A stretch of DNA of 64,000 nt from Candidatus Staskawiczbacteria bacterium (GTDB lineage: Bacteria > Patescibacteriota > Minisyncoccia > Minisyncoccales > Staskawiczbacteraceae). The notes under the pieces were generated by a model, which worked only from the letters and a program-made list of their open reading frames with translations, was not told the DNA's origin and searched no databases. Below, one piece after another: positions 13,495 to 61,305 of this stretch. The stretch is from positions 924-64,923 of the forward strand of contig CAIMWV010000035.1 in NCBI GenBank assembly GCA_903845295.1. Direction: 5' to 3'. The position numbers and the translations under genes were made by a program. Positions within the stretch are counted from its first letter, which is position 1; each line of letters begins with the position of its first letter.

Positions 13495-14625
13495 TTAATA
13501 CCTCGCCTGTTTCTTCGTAATTCTGTTTACAGCTATTTCCATTCCCACGTCCCGCGGGTTTTTGTTTTCACTGACGCTTTTCTTCAATATAATCCTGACA
13601 TTTTTCGTAATTTTTTTATCTATTGTATCCATCATTCTTTTAGGATTATAACCGCGGTATTCAGCATAAGAAGAAATCACTCCTCCGGCATTAGCAATGA
13701 AATCTGGAACGACCCAGACTCCCTTCTTGAAAAATTCTTTTTCTATTTCTTCTGACATCGGAATATTACCTGCTTCAACAATCATCTTAGTTTTAATTTT
13801 GTCCTTGTTGCTATTGTTAATGACGTTTGTGACAGACGCTGGGATTAAAATATCTGTTGGAACCTCCCAAAATTTTTCAGCTGAAATTTTTTGGCCGTAG
13901 GGATAATCTTTCAAAGTTTTTTTATCTTTTATGATTTTTTCCAGTACTTCGTGATCAAATCCGCTTTCCTGGAAAATTGTGGTTTCCGCGTCAGCTAATG
14001 CAATAACTTTAGCCCCCATTTGTGTTAAAAATTTATAGGCGAATGTCCCTACGTTTCCAAAGCCATGGATGGCTACTCTGGCTCCGTTCATGTTTATTCC
14101 AAGAATTTCTGCCGCAGTTTCTGCGGTTTTTGCAACTCCAAATCCGGTGCTTCCATATTCATGCGGAATTCCGCATTTTTCGCCCGTCTTGCCGAATGCC
14201 TTCATACAGTAATTAGCCGGCTTGCCGGTAGCCGACCTCCAATCCCCTGTTGCCTCTACAAACCATTGCATTTCCTGCTCGCCTGTCTGGACGTCGGGAG
14301 CTGCAATATATTTTTTAGGGGTTAGCAATTTAACAGCCTTTGCAAAGCTTTGGACAAACTTCTTTTTCAGTTCAGGAGTTCCGCCTTTCCATATTATCCC
14401 GGCCTTAGCTCCGCCGAAAGGCAGATCAGCCAAAGCATTTTTAAATGTCATTGTCCTGGCCAGCCTGAAAACCTCCTCGGCCGTCACATTGGGAGTCATT
14501 CTGATCCCCCCTTTCCCGGGTCCTAAAACAGTATTGTCTATAACTAAAAAACCCTCCATTTTTAATTCGGGGTCATAAATATTTATTACATATTCGGGAC
14601 CAAACTCGTCTTTTAGGATTTCCAT
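13495..14625 (-). CDS. Glu/Leu/Phe/Val dehydrogenase family (glutamate dehydrogenase-like)
   Basis: 376 aa. Motif KGGIRMTP...GGAKAGI and NAD(P) Rossmann GFGNVG. Confidence 0.85.
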   Translation of the reverse strand: MEILKDEFGPEYVINIYDPELKMEGFLVIDNTVLGPGKGGIRMTPNVTAEEVFRLARTMTFKNALADLPFGGAKAGIIWKGGTPELKKKFVQSFAKAVKLLTPKKYIAAPDVQTGEQEMQWFVEATGDWRSATGKPANYCMKAFGKTGEKCGIPHEYGSTGFGVAKTAETAAEILGINMNGARVAIHGFGNVGTFAYKFLTQMGAKVIALADAETTIFQESGFDHEVLEKIIKDKKTLKDYPYGQKISAEKFWEVPTDILIPASVTNVINNSNKDKIKTKMIVEAGNIPMSEEIEKEFFKKGVWVVPDFIANAGGVISSYAEYRGYNPKRMMDTIDKKITKNVRIILKKSVSENKNPRDVGMEIAVNRITKKQARY

Positions 14626-52812: not shown

Positions 52813-54534
52813 TTATTGCTTCGCATTCACATCATAATCCGGCGGAATCTGCCAATAGTTAATAATATACTGTGCTAATTGTTTAAAAATAGGAACTGCT
52901 GAAAGGGCTGACTTGGAAACTTTTGGATCATCTAATTTTACCAATATCAAAAACTGCGGATTGAAAGCCGGGCCATAGCCAACATAGCTCTGGATGGTTT
53001 TGTCCAAATCATATCCTTTTCCGTTTTTTAATGGAACCTGAGCCGTGCCTGTTTTACCGCCCAAATAATAACCTGGAATTTTTGCCACTCCATTAAAACC
53101 CTTATCAGCAACGTTAATTAACATTGAGTTCAGCTGGGAAATTGTCTGCTGAGAAACAATCGGCTGGGATATTTCCGGTTTTGTATCGGTCTCATCTCCC
53201 CCGTTAACAATTTTCTCAACTATATATGGCTTTACTAATTTTCCCCCATTAGCTATAGCACAAAAACCTCTGGCAATTTGTATAGGAGTCAGTCCAATTC
53301 CCTGTCCAAAAGAAGCCGTGGCAAAATTAAAATCTGGCCCATTTTTTAAATTATCATTTTTAGAATAAACCTCTCCCTGAAGGTCAATCCCTGTTTTTGA
53401 AGTAAACCCAAATTTATCGATATAACCAAAAAATGTTTTGTGCGGAATTTGTTGTTCTGCAAAAACCGCTCCGGTGTTGATTGAATTTTCCAAAACCTGA
53501 GTCATCGTCTGTTTGCCGTAAATTTCGTTAGCAAAGTTATGTATTGATTTTAACCCAAAAGTCAAAACGCCCATGTCTATATAAGTTGTGTCTGGAGTTA
53601 TTTTGCCCTCGTTTAGTGCGGCTGCCATTGTAAAAGGTTTCATTATGGATCCCGGCTCAAAAAGTTTTTGCACAGCGGAGTTTTGGAAAATACTCAAGTC
53701 TGTTTCTTTTGAGTATTGATTAGGATCAAAGTTGGGAAAATTCGCCAATGCCAAAATCTTTCCAGTATCAGGTTTCATGACTATTATCTGGCCAGAGTCT
53801 ATATCATCTTTTTTTTGTTCCTGCTTTAACAGGGCCTCCGCCTGAAATTGTATATTATAATCGATTGTTAAATATATATCTGAACCATCTAAAGATATCT
53901 GGTTGTCATTTGAAAAAATGGAATCCAATCCCGACCTTTCCTCTTGGACCCCGGATTTGCCTTTTAAAATATCTTCGTAGTAATCTTCGACGCCGTATTG
54001 GCCAGACCCAGAGCCCCCAAAAAAACCAATCGTCTCGGACGCCATCTCCCCTTGCGGGTAAAATCTTTGTGGCACATTTTGCCAGGACAAGCCATTGAGA
54101 TTTAATGCTTTGATTTTATCTAAATCTGCAGTTGATAAATTTTTTTTTAAGATAATATAAGAATCTTTGCTATTTAATTCTGAAAGTATCTGGTCTTGCG
54201 TCTCGCCAATGTTTTTACTTAGAGCCTCTGCAAAAGCTGCTTTATCTTTAATATCTTTCGGATTTGCAGAGATTGTCCAGCTGTCTTTATTTATAGCCAA
54301 GCTTTTTACTTCGCCTGATCCCCGGCTGCCTTTCGTTTCTTGGCTGTTTTCACAAAAAATCTGGCCGCGGGAACCTACAATATTGTTAAAAGCAACCTGC
54401 TGGCCAAGAGCTTGCGCCTCATAAAGTTTGCGGTCTAAAATCTGCAGAAAAAACAGGCGGCTAATAATAGCTGCCCCGAAAATAAAAATTAAGATTAAAA
54501 TTGTGTTTACGCGCCAATTGGTAAACTTTTTCAT
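52813..54534 (-). CDS. ftsI: Peptidoglycan D,D-transpeptidase FtsI / class B PBP
   Basis: N-terminal TM helix, dimerisation domain, transpeptidase motifs SIMKPF (SxxK), SxN, KTGTA. Confidence 0.9.
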   Translation of the reverse strand: MKKFTNWRVNTILILIFIFGAAIISRLFFLQILDRKLYEAQALGQQVAFNNIVGSRGQIFCENSQETKGSRGSGEVKSLAINKDSWTISANPKDIKDKAAFAEALSKNIGETQDQILSELNSKDSYIILKKNLSTADLDKIKALNLNGLSWQNVPQRFYPQGEMASETIGFFGGSGSGQYGVEDYYEDILKGKSGVQEERSGLDSIFSNDNQISLDGSDIYLTIDYNIQFQAEALLKQEQKKDDIDSGQIIVMKPDTGKILALANFPNFDPNQYSKETDLSIFQNSAVQKLFEPGSIMKPFTMAAALNEGKITPDTTYIDMGVLTFGLKSIHNFANEIYGKQTMTQVLENSINTGAVFAEQQIPHKTFFGYIDKFGFTSKTGIDLQGEVYSKNDNLKNGPDFNFATASFGQGIGLTPIQIARGFCAIANGGKLVKPYIVEKIVNGGDETDTKPEISQPIVSQQTISQLNSMLINVADKGFNGVAKIPGYYLGGKTGTAQVPLKNGKGYDLDKTIQSYVGYGPAFNPQFLILVKLDDPKVSKSALSAVPIFKQLAQYIINYWQIPPDYDVNAKQ

Positions 54535-54908
54535 CTAACGTTATTTTGTTGGACCGTAGCGACTGAACTGTCTGAAATCTGGATATATTTTACTGAAGTG
54601 GTTTTTTGAAAATTTAATGCTTGTATTTTTTCAAGAGCTTGGCCTAAAAAACTGCTCTCTGCAAAAGAAACCTCTAAGTTTTTATTTTCATCTGAAAGTT
54701 TGCTGATCTGCTTTTCATAACTGTTTATCTGATAAGATCCTCGCGTCAGGTCATTTATCTGCCAGACATAAAAAACCAATAAGGCTAAACTCATAAAAAA
54801 TCCTATAAAGCAAACTGCCTTCCAATTTATTTCCGGAAGACTTACAGAATTGATTTTAGCTTGTAAGTTTTTTTGTATTCTATGATAACTTATTGTTGCT
54901 GTTGTCAT
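54531..54908 (-). CDS. ftsL: Cell division protein FtsL-like (single TM + coiled coil)
   Basis: 125 aa. TM helix FIGFFMSLALLVFYVW followed by a heptad-like region. Position between rsmH and ftsI. Confidence 0.65.
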   Translation of the reverse strand: MTTATISYHRIQKNLQAKINSVSLPEINWKAVCFIGFFMSLALLVFYVWQINDLTRGSYQINSYEKQISKLSDENKNLEVSFAESSFLGQALEKIQALNFQKTTSVKYIQISDSSVATVQQNNVR

Positions 54909-55034
54909 AATTATGAAGGAGTGAGATATAAGAAATTCTGAGCGAGAGAAAATGAAAATTTATTTTTTATTTTCTCGAGTAAGTAGTTTGTTATATCGAC
55001 CGAGCGATTAATTATATAAATTGCGGAGCAATCT

Positions 55035-55922
55035 CTATAATTTAACCGCTACTCTCAGCTTCGCAGATCTCGCCCGAGGATTTTTTCCAAGCTCGTCTCT
55101 GCTTGCTGTTATTGGTTTTTTAGTTAATATTTTTATTATTCCTTTTTTTGATTCGTTTGCTAAAAAATTTTTAATGATCCTATCTTCTAAAGAATGGAAA
55201 GAGATTACTGCTAATCTTCCTTCCGGCGCTAAAATTGAAATAGCCTGAGGCAAGACTTTTTTAATGTTTTCTAATTCATCGTTGACCGCGATTCTTAATG
55301 CTTGAAAGGTTCTGGTCGCATAATGAATTTTCCCCCGCCAATATGCGCTTGGCGTTGCGTCTTTTATAATTTCTATTAACTGGAATGTACTTTTAATTCT
55401 TCCCAGTTTCCGATGCTCTACGATATTTTTTGCAATCTTTTTGGCGAACTTTTCTTCACCGTAATCCTTTAAAATTTCCTCAATTTTTTCTTCCGGCCAG
55501 TCATTCACAATTTTCTCTGCTGTTAGATAGCCTGTCTCGTCGTTATATCTCATGTCTAATCCCTGGTCTATTTGAAAAGAAAATCCCTTATGCGCGGCTG
55601 CCAGCTGCGCTGACGACATCCCTAAATCCAATAAAATTCCATTAACCGGGCCGAAATTCCTTCTTTCAATGATTTCCGTTAAATTTGTGTAAGAATCATT
55701 AACTAAAACTATCCTATCTTTAAAGATTGCCTCCAGCCATTGGCTTGCTGAAATTTGTTGCGGATCTAAATCAATCCCTAAAACTTTTCCTTCCGGTCCA
55801 TTTCTTTTGAGTATATCTTCTGTGTGTCCGCCCTCGCCTATCGTACAATCAACAAAATTTTCTTTCTGCTTAGGATCCAGATATTCTAAAACTTCTTTTT
55901 TAAGAACTGCTGTGTGTATCAT
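55035..55922 (-). CDS. rsmH: 16S rRNA (cytosine1402-N4)-methyltransferase RsmH
   Basis: HTAVLKKEVLEYL...DCTIGEGGHT...GILLDLGMSSAQL...RLAVISFHSLEDR. Confidence 0.95.
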   Translation of the reverse strand: MIHTAVLKKEVLEYLDPKQKENFVDCTIGEGGHTEDILKRNGPEGKVLGIDLDPQQISASQWLEAIFKDRIVLVNDSYTNLTEIIERRNFGPVNGILLDLGMSSAQLAAAHKGFSFQIDQGLDMRYNDETGYLTAEKIVNDWPEEKIEEILKDYGEEKFAKKIAKNIVEHRKLGRIKSTFQLIEIIKDATPSAYWRGKIHYATRTFQALRIAVNDELENIKKVLPQAISILAPEGRLAVISFHSLEDRIIKNFLANESKKGIIKILTKKPITASRDELGKNPRARSAKLRVAVKL

Positions 55923-56000
55923 AATTACAAATGAGGGAAAAATGAAAATTCATTTTCATTTTGACCGAATGCGGAATTATATAAATTACGGCTGCAATTT

Positions 56001-56432
56001 CTATATTCCTAAACCTCCTAATTTTGAAACAATTTCGTCAACTCCTTTTTCCGCTGCTTTTTTATAAGTTTCCCATTTTTCAGAGTCCCATATTTCTAAT
56101 CTGTTGGACAAGCCGCATATAACAACGTTTTTTTTCAGGCCGGCATAATCTTTCAGATAATCCGGTACAAGTATTCTTCCTAATTTATCTAAAGATACTT
56201 CCATGGCGCCGGCCAGAATCATTCTGGTAAAAGACCTTGCTTCCGCCTGGCTTATCGTCAGGCTTCCCAGCTTGTCTGACATTATTTTCCATTCAGCTTC
56301 CGTATAAACGGCAAGACAGCCCTCAATTCCCCTTGTGATTATTACTTTATCTCCTAGCTCGCCTCTGAATTTTGCAGGCAAAGCTAATCGCTTTTTATTA
56401 TCAATTGTATGTTCGTATTGGCCGATAAGCAT
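56001..56432 (-). CDS. mraZ: Transcriptional regulator MraZ
   Basis: Tandem MraZ/SpoVT-AbrB-like domains (MLIGQYEHTIDNKKRLALPAKFR... and RLEIWD). Confidence 0.9.
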   Translation of the reverse strand: MLIGQYEHTIDNKKRLALPAKFRGELGDKVIITRGIEGCLAVYTEAEWKIMSDKLGSLTISQAEARSFTRMILAGAMEVSLDKLGRILVPDYLKDYAGLKKNVVICGLSNRLEIWDSEKWETYKKAAEKGVDEIVSKLGGLGI

Positions 56433-56460
56433 ATATAAAGATATTCACTTGATTTGATAG

Positions 56461-56494
56461 TTCTCCCACATTTATCCACAGATTCCCACTTCAT
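56461..56494 (-). promoter_or_regulatory. Three direct repeats GTGGG-N5-GTGGA-N5-GTGGG (minus strand) with exact 10-bp spacing, just downstream of a TTGACT-N18-TATAAA promoter candidate (56499-56528); candidate MraZ operator
   Basis: CCCAC at 56465, TCCAC at 56475, CCCAC at 56485 on the plus strand. The arrangement resembles the GTGGN direct-repeat MraZ binding sites described in E. coli. Confidence 0.5.
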
Positions 56495-56605
56495 CTTATT
56501 TATAGTCCACTTTATGATACTTAGTCAACACCTTTGGCCAAAGACCTATTTTGTTCGTAAATAGGCCTATTTTTCCACCAGTTATCCACAGTTGAATTTT
56601 CGATA

Positions 56606-56618
56606 ATTGTCGCACAAT
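56606..56618. repeat. Copy f of the 13-bp palindromic motif (ATTGTCGCACAAT, perfect)
   Basis: Between two TTATCCACA boxes in the leuA / mraZ intergenic region. Confidence 0.7.
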
Positions 56619-56697
56619 GAGGGTTATCCACAAATTTGTAATAAAATAAGCTCCACCGAAGTGAAGCTTCAGCTGTTGAGGTTTTACACTCTAACAA

Positions 56698-58362
56698 CTA
56701 TGCTTTACTGCCCCTGTTAAGGGCACTTATAACCGCCTTGATCGAGGCCTGCTCGATGTTCGTATCTACTCCCGCTCCCCAACACATGCTTCCGTCAGGG
56801 AATTGAAGTTTGATATAAGAAATCGCGCTGGCCTCTTGGCCTGCTCCAAGCGCATGTTCAGCTTGATCAAGAACGCGTACATGGCAAATCTTTTCCAGTG
56901 AGCGGACGAATGCATCAATCGGCCCATTACCTTCTCCAGCCAACTGAAGATCCCTGTCTTCAAAAACAACGACTGACTGACAGTGGCATTTGCCAATTCC
57001 TGTGTCGGCCTCTGTATTGGACTGAAAGTGTTCGAGCCAGTAAGGAGCACCGCGCTCAACATATTCTGTCCAAAGCATTGCTTTCAATTCTGCGGATGTG
57101 ACTTCGCGGCCCAGAGCATCGATTTTCTTGCCCGCTATTGCACCGAATTCGCGCAGCATATCCTTAGGCAGATGGAGCCCGCACTCATTTTCCAGAAGCC
57201 ATGCTATGCCTCCCTTGCCAGATTGCCCGTTGACTCTTATCACTTCTTTATATTCCCGGCCGATGTCCCGAGGATCTATGGAAAGATAGGGCACATTCCA
57301 CGGAGCATTCCCGTCTTGGTCTCTTGCCCGCAATCCTTTGCGGATTGCGTCCTGGTGAGAACCGGAAAACGCAGTAAATACCAGCTCTCCGCTGTAAGGC
57401 TGGCGGGGAGGCACTTTCATCCCGGTACAGCGCTCATATATCTCGCGCAAAGAATCGATATCGGAAAAATCCAATTCCGGATCGATTCCCTGGCTGAACA
57501 AATTAAGCGCCACCGTCACAATGTCCAGATTTCCTGTCCGCTCCCCGTTTCCGAAAAGCGTGCCTTCCACGCGCTCTGCGCCTGCAAGCAGTCCAAGTTC
57601 TGTAGCAGCGACTCCTGTCCCGCGGTCATTGTGCGTATGAAGGCTTATGACTGCGCAATCGCGCCGGGACATGTTGCGGCAGAACCACTCGATCTGGTCT
57701 GCATGGACATTCGGAGTTGCCATCTGGACGGTATCGGGCAGATTGAGGATTATTTTATGTTGAGGCGTCGGCCCCCACACATCCATTACCGCCTCGCAAA
57801 CCTCGAGGGAGAAGTCTACCTCAGTCGCCGAAAAACTCTCTGGCGAATATTCAAAGGAAACTTCCGTTCCTTGAAGCCCTGCTGCATACTCCTTGACCCA
57901 CTTTGTCCCCTGCGCCGCCAGATCAACCACTTGCGGCTTCTCAAATCCAAAAACGATCTTGCGCTGAGCCGGCGAAGTAGAGTTGTATAAATGGATGGTC
58001 GCTTTATTTGCGCCAGCCAAAGACTCTGCTGTCCGCCTGATCAGGTCATCTCTAGCCTGCGTGAGAACCTGTATTGTCACGTCGCTCGGGATTAAGCGGC
58101 CTTCAATCAAGCGGCGGGTAAATCCGTATTCTGTGGGAGAAGCGGACGGAAATCCGATTTCAATTTCTTTGAATCCGCACTTGACCAGCATTAGAAACAT
58201 CTCTAGCTTCTGCTCGACGGTCATAGGTACCGCCAGTGCCTGGTTCCCATCGCGCAGATCAACGCTGCACCACCTTGGTGCTTTCGTGGTTGTCCGGCTC
58301 GGCCATTGGCGATCTTTGAGTTGAATGCCGTGAAACTGGATGTATTTGCCTGTCGGGTTCAT
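56698..58362 (-). CDS. leuA: 2-isopropylmalate synthase, long form with C-terminal LeuA allosteric/dimerisation domain
   Basis: HMGL-like TIM barrel (RDGNQAL...HTHNDRGTG) and C-terminal LeuA-dimer region. The gene is visibly more GC-rich than its neighbours and the GC-rich stretch contains many spurious overlapping ORFs on both strands in the ORF track. Confidence 0.9.
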   Translation of the reverse strand: MNPTGKYIQFHGIQLKDRQWPSRTTTKAPRWCSVDLRDGNQALAVPMTVEQKLEMFLMLVKCGFKEIEIGFPSASPTEYGFTRRLIEGRLIPSDVTIQVLTQARDDLIRRTAESLAGANKATIHLYNSTSPAQRKIVFGFEKPQVVDLAAQGTKWVKEYAAGLQGTEVSFEYSPESFSATEVDFSLEVCEAVMDVWGPTPQHKIILNLPDTVQMATPNVHADQIEWFCRNMSRRDCAVISLHTHNDRGTGVAATELGLLAGAERVEGTLFGNGERTGNLDIVTVALNLFSQGIDPELDFSDIDSLREIYERCTGMKVPPRQPYSGELVFTAFSGSHQDAIRKGLRARDQDGNAPWNVPYLSIDPRDIGREYKEVIRVNGQSGKGGIAWLLENECGLHLPKDMLREFGAIAGKKIDALGREVTSAELKAMLWTEYVERGAPYWLEHFQSNTEADTGIGKCHCQSVVVFEDRDLQLAGEGNGPIDAFVRSLEKICHVRVLDQAEHALGAGQEASAISYIKLQFPDGSMCWGAGVDTNIEQASIKAVISALNRGSKA

Positions 58363-58471
58363 GGCGAAATCCTTTCATTCGATCGGGTTGTTTGCCACAC
58401 TAAGATTGTAAAGGTGCTATCCCTTACACTCACGCCAAAATTTTCAAAAACTTTGGCGTGAGTGTAAAAAT

Positions 58472-58496
58472 CAAAAATCCTCCATCAGGAGGATTT
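58472..58496 (-). terminator. Attenuator terminator in the leuA leader (AATCCTCC-TGAT-GGAGGATT + UUUUUGAUUUUU on the minus strand)
   Basis: 8-bp stem followed by a U-tract on the leuA-sense strand. About 25 nt downstream of the leader peptide stop and 110 nt upstream of the leuA ATG. Confidence 0.5.
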
Positions 58497-58519
58497 TTGA
58501 TATAGAATTTATATTTGAT

Positions 58520-58621
58520 TTATATTCTTTTATCTTTATCAAAAACCTCCTGGCTTACCAAAAGCAGGCTTAACAACAAATTCAGCTGGAGGTTTAATTT
58601 TTTATCGCCTATATTTTGCAT
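58520..58621 (-). CDS. Leu-rich leader peptide (33 aa: MQNIGDKKLNLQLNLLLSLLLVSQEVFDKDKRI), probably leaderless or near-leaderless, upstream of leuA
   Basis: Manual translation of the minus strand. 9 Leu in a 14-residue stretch. The ATG lies about 7 nt after the -10 AATAAT of a TTGACA-N17-AATAAT promoter (58629-58657). Confidence 0.45.
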   Translation of the reverse strand: MQNIGDKKLNLQLNLLLSLLLVSQEVFDKDKRI

Positions 58622-58663
58622 ATGATGTATTATTGCAAAAACAAGTTATTCTGTCAACACCTT

Positions 58664-58676
58664 ATTGTCGCACAAT
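58664..58676. repeat. Copy g of the 13-bp palindromic motif (ATTGTCGCACAAT, perfect)
   Basis: 13 bp after the Clp-like gene stop and 7 bp upstream of the -35 box of the leuA-leader promoter. Confidence 0.7.
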
Positions 58677-58692
58677 AAAATAAAACACAATG

Positions 58693-61305
58693 CTAACCTT
58701 GCTTAGCCGGATTTACAATCAACTCAAAATTTTCCGGGTTGACTTCAATTTTATCCCCTTTTTTTATCTTATCGGATAAGAAAGCTTCTGCAACGGCATT
58801 TTCCACTTTATCCTGGATGACTCTTCTCATTTCTCTGGCGCCGAATTCCGGCTTGTAAGACAATTCAACGATCTTTTCTTTCAAAGGCTCGGTAATTTTT
58901 AAATCGATGTCTTTTTCTTTCAAATTTTTCTGGAGCGCCGATAAAGACAATTGAGCTATCTGCATTAAATTATCTTTTGTCAGGGGATGGAAAATTACAG
59001 TGGCATCAAAACGGTTTACAAATTCCGGCCTGAAAATATTTTTTTCGAAGATGGCATTCAATAATTTATCTTTTTCCAACGCCTGGTTGGATTCCACCTG
59101 TTTAAAAATCATGTCTGCGCCGGCATTTGATGTGCATATGATTATCGTGTTTGCAAAAACAACCTTCCTGCCCTGGCCGTCTGTTATGTGCCCCTCATCT
59201 AAAACTTGCAAAAAGAGATTTAAGATATTCGGATGGGCTTTTTCAATTTCATCCAGCAAAATGAGGGAAAACGGAGTTTCCCTGACAGGAGTCGTCAAAA
59301 GCCCTTGCATTTCTACGGGCGAAGTAGCTCCGATCAGCCTTGGGATATCTGAAATCGCCTGGAACTCTGACATATCGAGAGTTATCATTTTCTTTTCTGA
59401 ACCGAAATAAATTTGGGCCAGCGCTTTTGCGGTCTCGGTTTTTCCGACACCGGTAGGACCTAAAAATAAGAATGTCCCCATGGGCCTGGTTTTTGAGCTG
59501 ATTCCCATCCTTGCCCTCCTCATGGCGATTGATATTTCTTTTACTGCTTCTTCTTGGTTTACAATTCTGCTGTGAATCAGATTTTCTAAATTAAGCAAAA
59601 CTTCTTTTTCTTTAACTGCCATTTTACCGACTGGTATATTGGTTTTTTTAGAAACAATTTCAGCTATGTGGTGGGGCAAAACAACTTTTTCTTTTAACTT
59701 TTGCACATAAACAGCCGATTCGTCTAAAACATCCAGGGCTTTTTTAGGAAAAGGCAAAGAAGGCATATACCGCGCGGTCAAATTTACGATCTCGCGGATG
59801 GCCGGATACAACACCAAAATTTTGTGCGCATATTCTAATTCTAAAGCAGCTGATTGCAAAATATTTATTGTTTCCGCTTCGGTAACCTCCGAAACCTCAA
59901 CCTTTTCAAATAAATTTGCAAAGGAAGGATTCTCTTCTATATTTTTATGGAGTCCCTCATACGATGTTATGCCAATGAATTGGAAACTGGGTATCGGCAG
60001 GTACTTTGAAAGCATCCCGGATATGTCAAAAGCTCCTGCTTTTTGTACTTTTTGCCCGACAAAATTTTCAAGGTCATCAATGACTAAAATTACGTTCCCC
60101 GACGAAGCAACCTCCGCAAACATCTGGTCTAAAGCAGATTCCAATTTTTCAAAATCCGGTATTCGCGCGGCCAACAAAACAGCATCGAGCTCTACTACTC
60201 TTTTGTTATTTAATTGAGGCAAAGACATCCCTAAATAACATCTTTGGGCAAGAGCTTGGATTATACTTTTTCTGCCGGTTCCGGCATCTCCGACAATCAA
60301 AACATTGGCCAGACTGGATTTAGCCAAAATCACCTCGGTCTCCTCTATTTCTTTTTCATGGCCTATGATTTCCCTGAATTTCCATTTTGAAACAATTTTT
60401 TTCCAGTCAACAGAAAATTTGTCTAGAGTTATGGTATATCCGGATGAAAAATTTTTGCCCAAAGACCCTTTTCTCAATAAATTTTCGTATGTCCAAAATT
60501 TTCTGTTCTTTTCCATCAGATCTTCTGCGGAGTCTATCCATAAGGTTAAATCCTTGACATCTTCCGGCTTTAAATTAAAATCAACCAAAGTTTTTTTGAA
60601 AAAATCGTCTTCTGATGCTAGGGCAACTAAAATTTCCTTTTCCCCGATACTACAGTGCTGTCTGTCGGTTGAAACTTTAAGCGCAAGCTCTATTGTTTTT
60701 TGAAAGTCGTCTGAAAATGAATCCCCGGCAATATCCTGTTTTTGCATTTTTTCCAAATAATTTTTTATGTCAGCCTGCAACTTTTTAGGATTCAACCCCA
60801 ACCGTATGCAAATTAAGTTTATATCTTTGCTAAATTTTACAGCAGAATAAAAGAGCGAAGTTGAATTAATTGGAACTCTCTTCTTTTTACAAAAATCAAT
60901 TGAATCTAAAACAATTTTCGCTGCCTCAAAATTTAAAAATTCTGCCAGATTATAACTGGCTGGATGTGCGGCTGCATTCAAAATATCTATTTTATTTTCC
61001 GGCTTTTTAATTTTCAGTTCTGTAAACAAATCAATGTTCCAAAAAATAAGATAAAGAGACAGGAACAAAGCCAGCGTTTTTGCTGCAGAATATCCGGAAG
61101 TAAGATTTAAGAAAGAAAATCCTACAAGCAAAAATGCAATCAGAAACAGAATCAAAAAAACATTCTTTAAAATTTTGGCAAACTTAAATAAGGGAAAATT
61201 TTCCCTTCTTACTGCCTTAAAAATCTCTGTATTTTCTAAAGCAAAATTAAATGGCATACACTTAGTCCTATTGTTTAATAAAAAAATAAAATCCCGCTGT
61301 TGCAA
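58693..61305 (-). CDS. ClpA/ClpB/ClpC-family AAA+ ATPase with an N-terminal membrane anchor and a degenerate first Walker A
   Basis: Two N-terminal TM helices. Clp_N-like repeats. D1 GDAGTGRKS is non-canonical. D2 is canonical (GPTGVGKTETAKALA, sensor and Arg-finger regions, ClpB_D2-small). Confidence 0.7.
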   Translation of the reverse strand: MQQRDFIFLLNNRTKCMPFNFALENTEIFKAVRRENFPLFKFAKILKNVFLILFLIAFLLVGFSFLNLTSGYSAAKTLALFLSLYLIFWNIDLFTELKIKKPENKIDILNAAAHPASYNLAEFLNFEAAKIVLDSIDFCKKKRVPINSTSLFYSAVKFSKDINLICIRLGLNPKKLQADIKNYLEKMQKQDIAGDSFSDDFQKTIELALKVSTDRQHCSIGEKEILVALASEDDFFKKTLVDFNLKPEDVKDLTLWIDSAEDLMEKNRKFWTYENLLRKGSLGKNFSSGYTITLDKFSVDWKKIVSKWKFREIIGHEKEIEETEVILAKSSLANVLIVGDAGTGRKSIIQALAQRCYLGMSLPQLNNKRVVELDAVLLAARIPDFEKLESALDQMFAEVASSGNVILVIDDLENFVGQKVQKAGAFDISGMLSKYLPIPSFQFIGITSYEGLHKNIEENPSFANLFEKVEVSEVTEAETINILQSAALELEYAHKILVLYPAIREIVNLTARYMPSLPFPKKALDVLDESAVYVQKLKEKVVLPHHIAEIVSKKTNIPVGKMAVKEKEVLLNLENLIHSRIVNQEEAVKEISIAMRRARMGISSKTRPMGTFLFLGPTGVGKTETAKALAQIYFGSEKKMITLDMSEFQAISDIPRLIGATSPVEMQGLLTTPVRETPFSLILLDEIEKAHPNILNLFLQVLDEGHITDGQGRKVVFANTIIICTSNAGADMIFKQVESNQALEKDKLLNAIFEKNIFRPEFVNRFDATVIFHPLTKDNLMQIAQLSLSALQKNLKEKDIDLKITEPLKEKIVELSYKPEFGAREMRRVIQDKVENAVAEAFLSDKIKKGDKIEVNPENFELIVNPAKQG

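Follow-up and report, generated by a model that had tools for sequence, protein, structure and literature searches.

A leuA gene on the minus strand is the subject of this analysis, which covered a window of 64,000 nucleotides (nt), that is, the whole stretch of DNA from positions 924 to 64,923 of contig CAIMWV010000035.1 in a Candidatus Staskawiczbacteria assembly (GCA_903845295.1). Staskawiczbacteria are members of the Patescibacteria/Parcubacteria group. The reading favoured here, and which we hold to be reasonably probable as a whole, is that the gene encodes a functional long-form 2-isopropylmalate synthase (IPMS), forms its own leucine-controlled transcription unit, and is an old resident cassette of Parcubacteria/Staskawiczbacteria-like bacteria of the Candidate Phyla Radiation (CPR).

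56698..58362, minus strand: leuA, long-form 2-isopropylmalate synthase, identified from its open reading frame (ORF) of 554 amino acids (aa), its translation and family profiles.

Judging from profile scores and conserved residues, LeuA is a bona fide long-form IPMS. The protein matches the NCBIfam model TIGR00970 (leuA_yeast) over its full length with 716.5 bits, passing the equivalog cutoff of 697.4, and NF002991 with 800.5 bits against a cutoff of 455. Its Pfam architecture consists of HMGL-like, IPMS_D2 and LeuA_dimer (PF08502, residues 420-550, E = 1.5e-23), and it shares the TIM-barrel HMGL-like domain, the IPMS_D2 linker and the LeuA_dimer allosteric domain with the enzymes of Mycobacterium tuberculosis (MtLeuA, PDB 1SR9) and Corynebacterium glutamicum. 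In a phmmer alignment to 1SR9 (E = 3.9e-163), R80, D81, L143, H167, Y169, S216, E218, N250, P252, T254, H285, H287, H379 and Y410 (M. tuberculosis numbering) are all identical or conserved, and the GNGP motif of the regulatory domain is retained. According to the assignment reportedly made by Koon et al. 2004, D81, H285 and H287 are metal ligands, R80, E218, H379 and Y410 are catalytic, and L143, H167, Y169, S216, N250, P252 and T254 form the 2-oxoisovalerate (ketoisovalerate) pocket; all three groups are common to MtLeuA-type enzymes and the window protein. A solitary gene with its own leader, as found here, is likewise usual in the long-form subfamily. Unlike MtLeuA, the window enzyme has no mycobacterial repeat insertion, resides in a CPR/Parcubacteria genome, evolves faster than its neighbours and is encoded by a gene whose composition does not match that of its host.

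The gene is intact and, as substitution rates indicate, under purifying selection. In comparison with its closest relative (locus L088, 80% identical), the ratio of nonsynonymous to synonymous substitutions (dN/dS) is 0.135/1.03 = 0.13. An assembly chimera can be set aside, since 7 contigs from several samples carry the identical protein between the same flanks.

Upstream of leuA lies a spacer of 330 nt, which is AT-rich and host-like (GC within 0.29-0.37), as the original prediction had described. The following elements, all read on the minus strand, were recognised in this spacer and behind the gene.

58629..58657, minus strand: sigma-70-type promoter, TTGACA, 17 nt, then (TG)AATAAT, with 11/12 matches and an extended -10 TG.
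58520..58621, minus strand: leader ORF MQNIGDKKLNLQLNLLLSLLLVSQEVFDKDKRI of 33 codons, with 9 Leu codons among the 13 codons at 58559-58597.
58537..58595, minus strand: region 1:2 hairpin, AAACCTCC (58588-58595) with GGAGGTTT, -14.5 kcal/mol, present in the centroid fold.
58486..58553, minus strand: antiterminator 2:3, CCAGGAGGTTTTTGATA (58537-58553) with TATATCAAAAATCCTCCTG (58486-58503), -22.0 kcal/mol, present in the minimum free energy (MFE) fold.
58466..58500, minus strand: attenuator terminator 3:4, stem TCAAAAATCCTCC / GGAGGATTTTTGA with loop TGAT, followed by TTTTT, -20.3 kcal/mol, present in the centroid fold.
58425..58466, minus strand: perfect 15-bp hairpin TACACTCACGCCAAA / TTTGGCGTGAGTGTA after the attenuator terminator, from sequence and fold.
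58406..58418, minus strand: conserved motif AGCACCTTTACAA between attenuator and cargo, unique in the window at 0 mismatches, at the left edge of the variable cassette.
58370..58375, minus strand: ribosome-binding site AAAGGA, 7 nt upstream of the leuA ATG, read from the sequence.
56641..56669, minus strand: intrinsic terminator of leuA, AAGCTTCAC-TTCG-GTGGAGCTT then ATTTTATTA, from a terminator scan, at the right edge of the variable cassette.

From this anatomy we infer that leuA is its own leucine-controlled transcription unit with a classic 1:2/2:3/3:4 attenuator. The leader ORF is the sole intergenic Leu-rich mini-ORF in the window, the 1:2 hairpin spans its Leu codon run, and the 2:3 pairing is mutually exclusive with the terminator. 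The whole leader folds with z = -7.1; its MFE structure is the antiterminator, while its centroid combines the 1:2 hairpin with the terminator. Since leuA has its own terminator at 56669-56641, the unit is monocistronic. On the precedent of known attenuators, transcription would proceed from the sigma-70 promoter into the 33-codon, Leu-packed leader ORF. In the unstalled state, the 1:2 hairpin would sequester region 2. With plentiful charged tRNA-Leu, the ribosome at the stop codon would cover region 2, or 1:2 would fold, and 3:4 would terminate transcription; with scarce tRNA-Leu, the ribosome would stall in the Leu run, leaving region 2 free to pair with region 3, and leuA would be transcribed. 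The retained allosteric Leu-binding domain may add a second layer of feedback on the enzyme itself.

The leader recurs in relatives. Homologous Leu-run leaders (...LLLSLLLL...QEVFDK) precede leuA in L005, L089, L090 and L092, and the partial leader on the short L088 contig is identical to that of the window. Related leaders keep TTGACA and a TAATAT-like -10 box, the 2:3 pairing is the RNAalifold consensus of 19 leaders (13 pairs), and the terminator core is invariant across them. The 15-bp hairpin is identical in L088, and in L005 a different, fully complementary (compensatory) hairpin occupies the same place. Close variants of AGCACCTTTACAA lie 3' of the terminator in L088, L089, L101, L103/L105, L108 and L109, independent of the gene behind; the matches are weaker or interrupted in L005, L090, L106 and L107. 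A second leader variant (NLLALLNLRKKGGDFACV, with a different terminator and the same layout) precedes the same leuA clade in the Paceibacterota contexts L003, L006, L093, L110 and L111. In all, the architecture is conserved in >20 loci, a sample partly picked by its core sequence, plus this second variant. Leu-run leaders also stand before long-form leuA in Spirochaetes, Desulfobulbales and some Opitutales; the regulation may thus have been built in the recipient, as the original prediction proposed, or elsewhere.

With the leu, trp and his attenuators of Escherichia coli, the window leader shares a short ORF of regulatory codons, mutually exclusive 1:2, 2:3 and 3:4 hairpins, and an intrinsic terminator before the structural gene. 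It differs from the E. coli leu operon and its Rfam family RF00512 in controlling a single gene instead of leuABCD, and from classical attenuators in that this leader type persists in relatives where the downstream gene is another one or is missing. The actinobacterial LEU element (Seliverstov et al. 2005, PMC1262725) likewise puts a leader ORF with a run of Leu codons ahead of leuA. It has been described as a pseudoknot formed by base pairing between this run and the Shine-Dalgarno sequence of leuA, and a terminator is often missing (PMC1262725). Both systems place a Leu-run leader ORF directly 5' of a long-form leuA, whereas the window leader has a U-tailed terminator and an antiterminator, about 100 nt ahead of the ribosome-binding site. 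An Rfam search of 56350-58800 at E up to 1 gave no match to T-box, Leu_leader (RF00512) or leu/phe leader families, and the sub-threshold matches at 58409-58531 were to unrelated families, on both strands and stacked on the hairpins. At gathering level, the only Rfam matches were 3 tRNAs.

The original prediction had singled out leuA as a compositional outlier and proposed horizontal acquisition. The outlier is real. Compared with 50 other ORFs of the window, leuA has a GC content of 0.524 against a mean of 0.384 (sd 0.031, maximum 0.457; z = 4.4) and a GC content at third codon positions (GC3) of 0.544 against 0.369 (z = 4.1), with z = 3.5 for GC1 and z = 1.5 for GC2. In a 200-nt profile, GC rises in a sharp step from 0.29-0.37 in both spacers to 0.48-0.58 within the gene. 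Codon usage is also unlike that of the host, as shown by Arg codons (CGN/AGR 26/7 against 184/411) and by TTA, which accounts for 2/46 Leu codons (4%) against 34% in the host. GC3 of Ile, Lys, Glu and Val codons is about doubled relative to the host; the synonymous offset peaks in the Ile, Lys, Glu, Val and Arg families, and there is none in Ala, Gly, Pro, His and Asp. The long spurious ORFs reported for this region are partly borne out: the window's longest antisense ORF (335 aa, plus strand, 56983-57990) does lie inside leuA, but to say that they occur only here was an overstatement, as shorter overlapping ORFs of 120-240 aa are found elsewhere in the window.

Such a signature could have been left by the recent acquisition, from a GC-rich donor, of a gene that is still unameliorated and may have a role other than leucine synthesis in an auxotroph. 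The outlying GC and GC3, a choice of Arg and Leu codons that looks foreign, and the fact that the closest non-CPR relatives are Verrucomicrobia of 63% GC would all suit this account, which is nevertheless extremely improbable and already largely refuted by conserved synteny. In the window, leuA stands, as had been stated, between a ClpB-like AAA ATPase gene upstream (58693-61305) and mraZ-rsmH-ftsL-like-ftsI downstream (52813-56432). The order clpB-like / leader / leuA / mraZ-rsmH-ftsL-ftsI recurs in five relatives whose LeuA is 66-80% identical (80% in L088, 71% in L089 and L092, 70% in L005, 67% in L090), with a permease, a Na/Ca exchanger, a P-type ATPase and RmuC often following ftsI. One of these, L092, is the Staskawiczbacteria metagenome-assembled genome (MAG) GCA_026395275.1, which has the same gene order and host proteins 72-86% identical to those of the window; across the syntenic relatives host proteins are 54-86% identical. 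The closest named LeuA homologues belong to Candidatus Paceibacterota and Candidatus Staskawiczbacteria MAGs. The nearest homologue among 5.8 billion proteins, about 79-80% identical (L088), is itself syntenic, and the best non-syntenic one is <=74% identical. The same slot and the same offset are found at 66-71% LeuA identity, with leuA synonymous sites saturated between syntenic loci, where host genes have dS values of 1.3-2.9. Nor does leuA look like a genomic island: it occupies the same site in five diverged relatives, with no integrase, tRNA or insertion scar nearby, and the 13-mer that flanks it is a genome-wide, probably promoter-linked motif.

Because the arrangement and the GC excess recur in relatives 66-80% identical, the transfer is judged to be old. 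In a bootstrapped neighbour-joining (NJ) tree, 53 CPR-type LeuA proteins form one clade (85%), star-like inside, whose sister is a Verrucomicrobia/Planctomycetes clade (100%); both together are supported at 100%. Horizontal acquisition is thus upheld in one part and given up in another: the family is probably foreign to the host lineage, in view of this topology and of the host-unlike codons, whereas a recent date is contradicted by five syntenic relatives with an equal GC excess and saturated synonymous sites. The leuA family looks like the product of a single, old transfer between phyla and of long residence since. It would have entered Parcubacteria once, long ago, from a donor probably of the Verrucomicrobia/Planctomycetes type, and would since have been inherited within the host family at one fixed slot between the clpB-like gene and mraZ.

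The slot itself is less constant than its flanks. A scan of metagenomes with the leader core (GGAGGTTTTTGATAAA, 20-50 nt, TCAAAAATCCTCC) retrieved 16 loci, all of the form clpB-like / leader / X / mraZ and 15/16 with a Leu-run leader ORF, yet long-form leuA was present in 0/16. In L106 and L107 the cargo is a short-form leuA of 520-523 aa, with the Pfam architecture HMGL-like, HCS_D2 and LeuA_dimer and only 24-28% identity to the window LeuA. This short-form enzyme constitutes its own deep clade (52-72% identity, then a gap to 45-49%) and is found in other places too, there behind a Leu leader of its own and with no more than a weak GC offset. Orphan ORFs of one family of about 85 aa fill the slot in 7/16 loci and receiver-like ORFs of about 110-130 aa in 2/16. 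The cargo of L094 and L108 is almost nothing, 350-550 nt without a convincing gene and then mraZ and the division cluster; there, leucine starvation might read through into mraZ. The cargo is GC-rich in most of the 16 loci, clearly so in about 10: GC3 is 0.50-0.57 in short-form leuA against 0.31-0.35 in the adjacent clpB-like gene, and 0.38-0.57 against 0.23-0.36 for small-ORF cargo.

The boundaries of the exchange are sharp. Between the window and the loci with other cargo, DNA homology ends just past AGCACCTTTACAA (58406-58418) and resumes at the leuA terminator, at about 56667. Loci with and without long-form leuA are interleaved in host-gene trees, and no leuA remnants were found in the loci that lack the gene (tblastn at E up to 50, blastn with word size 7). 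The comparison with L088 is a mosaic: the leaders are identical over 100/100 nt, including an AT-rich linker that varies among other relatives, leuA itself is 66-89% identical per 100 nt (dS = 1.03), and mraZ has dS = 0.43 and dN = 0.003 behind a promoter 98% identical. Adjacent segments therefore differ in age, as would be expected if cassette and flanks recombine independently.

The slot seems to behave like a cassette site in which the leader and the mraZ-side flank are kept while the gene between them is swapped or lost in close relatives. Like recombination hot spots or variable slots between conserved core genes (integration hot spots, gene-cassette sites), it combines conserved flanks with sharp homology boundaries, holds unrelated cargo in closely related loci and shows mosaic divergence. 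Unlike them, it has no integrase, attachment repeats or mobile-element genes, and a resident amino-acid-sensing promoter and leader would drive any cargo present. Tentatively, and with more doubt than confidence, we suggest that the Leu leader between the clpB-like gene and mraZ may be a starvation-responsive expression socket with exchangeable cargo, where frequent recombination, possibly through GC-biased repair, would hold the GC3 of the cargo 10-25 points above that of the genome.

The orphan family of about 85 aa was observed directly 3' of the Leu leader in L095, L097, L099, L101, L103, L104 and L105. Its consensus is MC.xRDG[KN][FI]VVP...W[WI]GQ...W[VI][QE].PEY; just 4 clusters of it were found among 5.8 billion proteins, and it has no Pfam match. 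A relic of the LeuA N-terminus was considered on account of a weak resemblance (C-x-x-RDGN...VP / DLRDGNQ) at consistent positions; the matches are non-significant (E about 1-4).

Part of the GC excess of leuA lies in the protein. LeuA written with host synonymous codons would have an expected GC of 45.8%, against 52.4% observed and a host coding average of 38.8%, so that about +7 points come from amino-acid composition and about +6.6 from codon choice, roughly half each. LeuA is richer in Ala, Gly and Arg and poorer in Lys, Ile, Asn and Phe, and the native leuA of AT-rich Verrucomicrobia, 1-8 GC points above its flanks, fits this amino-acid component. As to the synonymous half, leuA has the top GC3 of its neighbourhood in every syntenic relative, with values of 0.57 against 0.35 in neighbouring genes for L088, 0.45 against 0.29 for L092, 0.36 against 0.20 for L089 and 0.31 against 0.20 for L090. 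Relative to its neighbours, cargo GC3 differs by +10 to +26 points where either form of leuA fills the slot, and by +7 to +25 points for other cargo. The same leuA clade outside the slot, in Paceibacterota genomes, gave 0.21 against 0.31 (L093), 0.21 against 0.26 (L110), 0.49 against about 0.58 (L006), 0.35 against about 0.29 (L003), 0.52 against 0.45 (L111) and 0.36 against about 0.21 (L009). The GC excess therefore does not point to recent transfer, and its synonymous half tends to be an offset common to whatever gene occupies the slot. Our leading guess is that recombination-driven cassette turnover, by GC-biased repair or repeated import of alleles, may maintain this offset.

In L090, the gene for ribosomal protein L7/L12 (5791-6192) has a GC3 of 7.5% against about 20% in its neighbours, which indicates that highly expressed genes of the host family are pushed to lower GC3, opposite to leuA.

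Slow amelioration would offer another source for the synonymous offset: leuA would have entered the family ancestor at a GC3 >80% and would still be decaying, with the other GC-rich cargo as separate, later imports. Its GC3 does follow that of the host while exceeding it (31, 36, 45 and 54 against 20, 20, 29 and 37), Arg CGN, which is slow to convert to AGR, persists in all CPR leuA genes, and a rough F81-type estimate from third-position retention, a low-power test, allows 15-40% of the initial offset to remain. The account nonetheless appears unlikely. It requires a GC3 >80% in the donor at the family root, while sister CPR leuA genes have a GC3 of 21-52%, several of them at or below host level; moreover, the AT-rich leader adjoining leuA is fully host-like, and unrelated cargo in the same slot has the same offset. 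Shared G/C states at conserved four-fold sites were equal to expectation; because a rough model gives this comparison nearly no power if the ancestor was GC-rich, it was left unused as evidence.

Codon selection for expression in leucine starvation is a further candidate, in which TTA, AGA, ATA and AAA are avoided, or a stabler GC-rich mRNA is favoured, or both, and the GC excess is a by-product. TTA is nearly absent from leuA and the other cargo (0-3 codons in most), while in neighbouring host genes or the adjacent clpB-like gene it makes up about 30-70% of Leu codons. The concentration of the offset in the Ile, Lys, Glu, Val and Arg families and its absence from Ala, Gly, Pro, His and Asp also speak for it, and this codon-family pattern fits the selective-charging theory reportedly put forward by Elf et al. 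2003. Leucine limitation, however, should concern Leu codons only; the attenuated leuA genes of L093 and L110 have host-like or lower GC3, and the leader itself mixes all Leu codon types. We judge this explanation decidedly unlikely.

With regard to the pathway, the statement that the window contains no leuBCD or ilv genes is confirmed: in a scan of nearly all other ORFs of 120 aa or longer against Pfam or NCBIfam, no leu or ilv gene turned up. The remaining functions (transporters, DnaB, DnaX, RecR, CysS, IMPDH and PKD-domain surface proteins) are a typical small-genome set. The isolation of the gene had been taken as evidence in itself, which it is not. In Desulforhopalus singaporensis, a 3-Mb Coraliomargarita chromosome, a Spirochaetia MAG and a Spartobacteria MAG, too, long-form leuA stands apart from leuBCD; since it is solitary in such free-living bacteria too, a solitary leuA is uninformative.

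Two side observations concern amino-acid metabolism around these genes. In L006 (10001-15076), a genome of 50% GC whose LeuA falls in the same clade, the genes behind leuA and its variant-2 Leu leader are ridA, a threonine dehydratase gene (ilvA-like) and an aspartate kinase gene; in no other context were further amino-acid biosynthesis genes seen close to leuA. In the window, 13495-14625 (minus strand) encodes a 376-aa dehydrogenase of the Glu/Leu/Phe/Val family, for which the nearest NCBIfam model is archaeal GdhA (218 bits against a cutoff of 750). A role as Leu/Val dehydrogenase feeding 2-oxoisovalerate from valine was considered and is not claimed, as the protein is nearest to GdhA and far under its cutoff.

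Several points weigh against the favoured reading. In the 19-leader alignment, no covariation was found in the attenuator; the paired cores are invariant and 15/19 leaders were retrieved through that very core, an ascertainment bias because of which the alignment lends no covariation support. When the ribosome footprint is masked, equilibrium folding often still prefers the terminator, and the argument for attenuation rests on the order of co-transcriptional folding. The LeuA trees were built by NJ only, and long-branch or compositional attraction could yield a false CPR clade. The effect of the slot on GC3 is a tendency and no rule, as outside the slot L009 reaches +14 points while L093, L110 and L006 lie at -5 to -10. 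Within about 10 kb on either side of leuA, no leuB, leuC, leuD or ilv gene was seen in eight CPR contexts, and CPR/Patescibacteria are generally regarded as unable to synthesise amino acids. On both of these grounds a complete leucine pathway is an assumption, its remaining genes being presumed to lie elsewhere in the genome.

The missing neighbours, a compatible CPR lifestyle and the faster evolution of LeuA than of its neighbours (dN 0.20-0.25 against 0.08-0.16) could also speak for a role other than leucine synthesis, be it as a citramalate- or homocitrate-type synthase, as a source of 2-isopropylmalate as an end product or an exchange metabolite with a host cell, or as a leucine sensor. 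The original prediction had raised citramalate or homocitrate chemistry and a moonlighting role, and neither holds up well. The scores fall far below the cutoffs of the relevant models (TIGR00977, 75.7 against 450 bits; TIGR02660, 100.6 against 462.9; TIGR02146, 88.4 against 413.6), every residue of the 2-oxoisovalerate pocket is kept, and solitary long-form leuA is normal in prototrophs. Family cutoffs, active-site residues, the Leu-binding domain and the Leu-codon attenuator point instead to a leucine-controlled IPMS, and a non-leucine role seems very improbable. Three features, namely the Leu-codon control, the retained allosteric domain and the appearance of a non-orthologous short-form IPMS in place of the long form after an unchanged type of leader, argue that selection has probably kept IPMS activity as such, for making leucine.

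Other elements of the window deserve a brief description.

58664..58676, minus strand: 13-mer ATTGTGCGACAAT, 6 nt upstream of the -35 box of the leuA-leader promoter, found by counting repeats in the window.

This 13-mer has 9 copies at <=1 mismatch in the window, all on the minus (gene-coding) strand, against 2.2 expected at up to 2 mismatches. The copies begin at 532, 13446, 15121, 30718, 35835, 41833, 56606, 58664 and 63613, several of them at or just upstream of gene starts; that at 56606-56618 lies upstream of mraZ. A direct repeat flanking the leuA unit, as an insertion scar, was therefore rejected, given the 9 copies, always on the minus strand and near promoters. The motif is probably a promoter-linked element or the binding site of a regulator of this organism.

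The leuA-mraZ spacer (56465-56632) contains the window's only three perfect DnaA-box 9-mers (TTATCCACA), all in one orientation. One of them falls within a 10-bp-periodic GTGGG/GTGGA/GTGGG triplet just upstream of mraZ, which resembles an MraZ operator. A replication origin at this cluster was rejected, as the cumulative GC skew has no turning point in the window. At the other end, 1000-1690 (likely minus strand) is an ORF-free region of about 650-700 nt with 48-58% GC in a genome of 39% GC. It is bordered on both sides by terminator-like hairpins and folds with an MFE of -280 kcal/mol (z = -4.8); no Rfam match was obtained at E up to 0.1. This region could be a large non-coding RNA or a dead gene.

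The LeuA enzyme and the attenuator each belong to known kinds. A search for literature on isopropylmalate synthase in Patescibacteria, CPR, Parcubacteria and Paceibacteria returned nothing relevant; against that background, what appears to be new is that leuA and its attenuator occur in Parcubacteria, that a conserved leader is followed by exchangeable cargo, and that the compositional offset persists. One lesson is cautionary: a strong outlier in GC and codon usage need not be a recent transfer. The leuA slot offers a concrete case in which to ask whether recombination, rather than foreign origin, can hold the composition of a gene away from that of its genome, and the same leader in front of another IPMS type or of unrelated small genes is a natural experiment on the evolution of a regulatory socket and its cargo.

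For the organisms themselves, these findings suggest that the host family may sense its leucine supply through translation and answer with a biosynthetic enzyme, and that ribosome-mediated attenuation may operate in the reduced cells of the CPR. If the leader is indeed a socket for exchangeable cargo and leuBCD are missing from these genomes, an IPMS on its own would imply that 2-isopropylmalate or keto acids are exchanged with a host cell; CPR symbionts would then, if this is true, be sharing a pathway in a new way.

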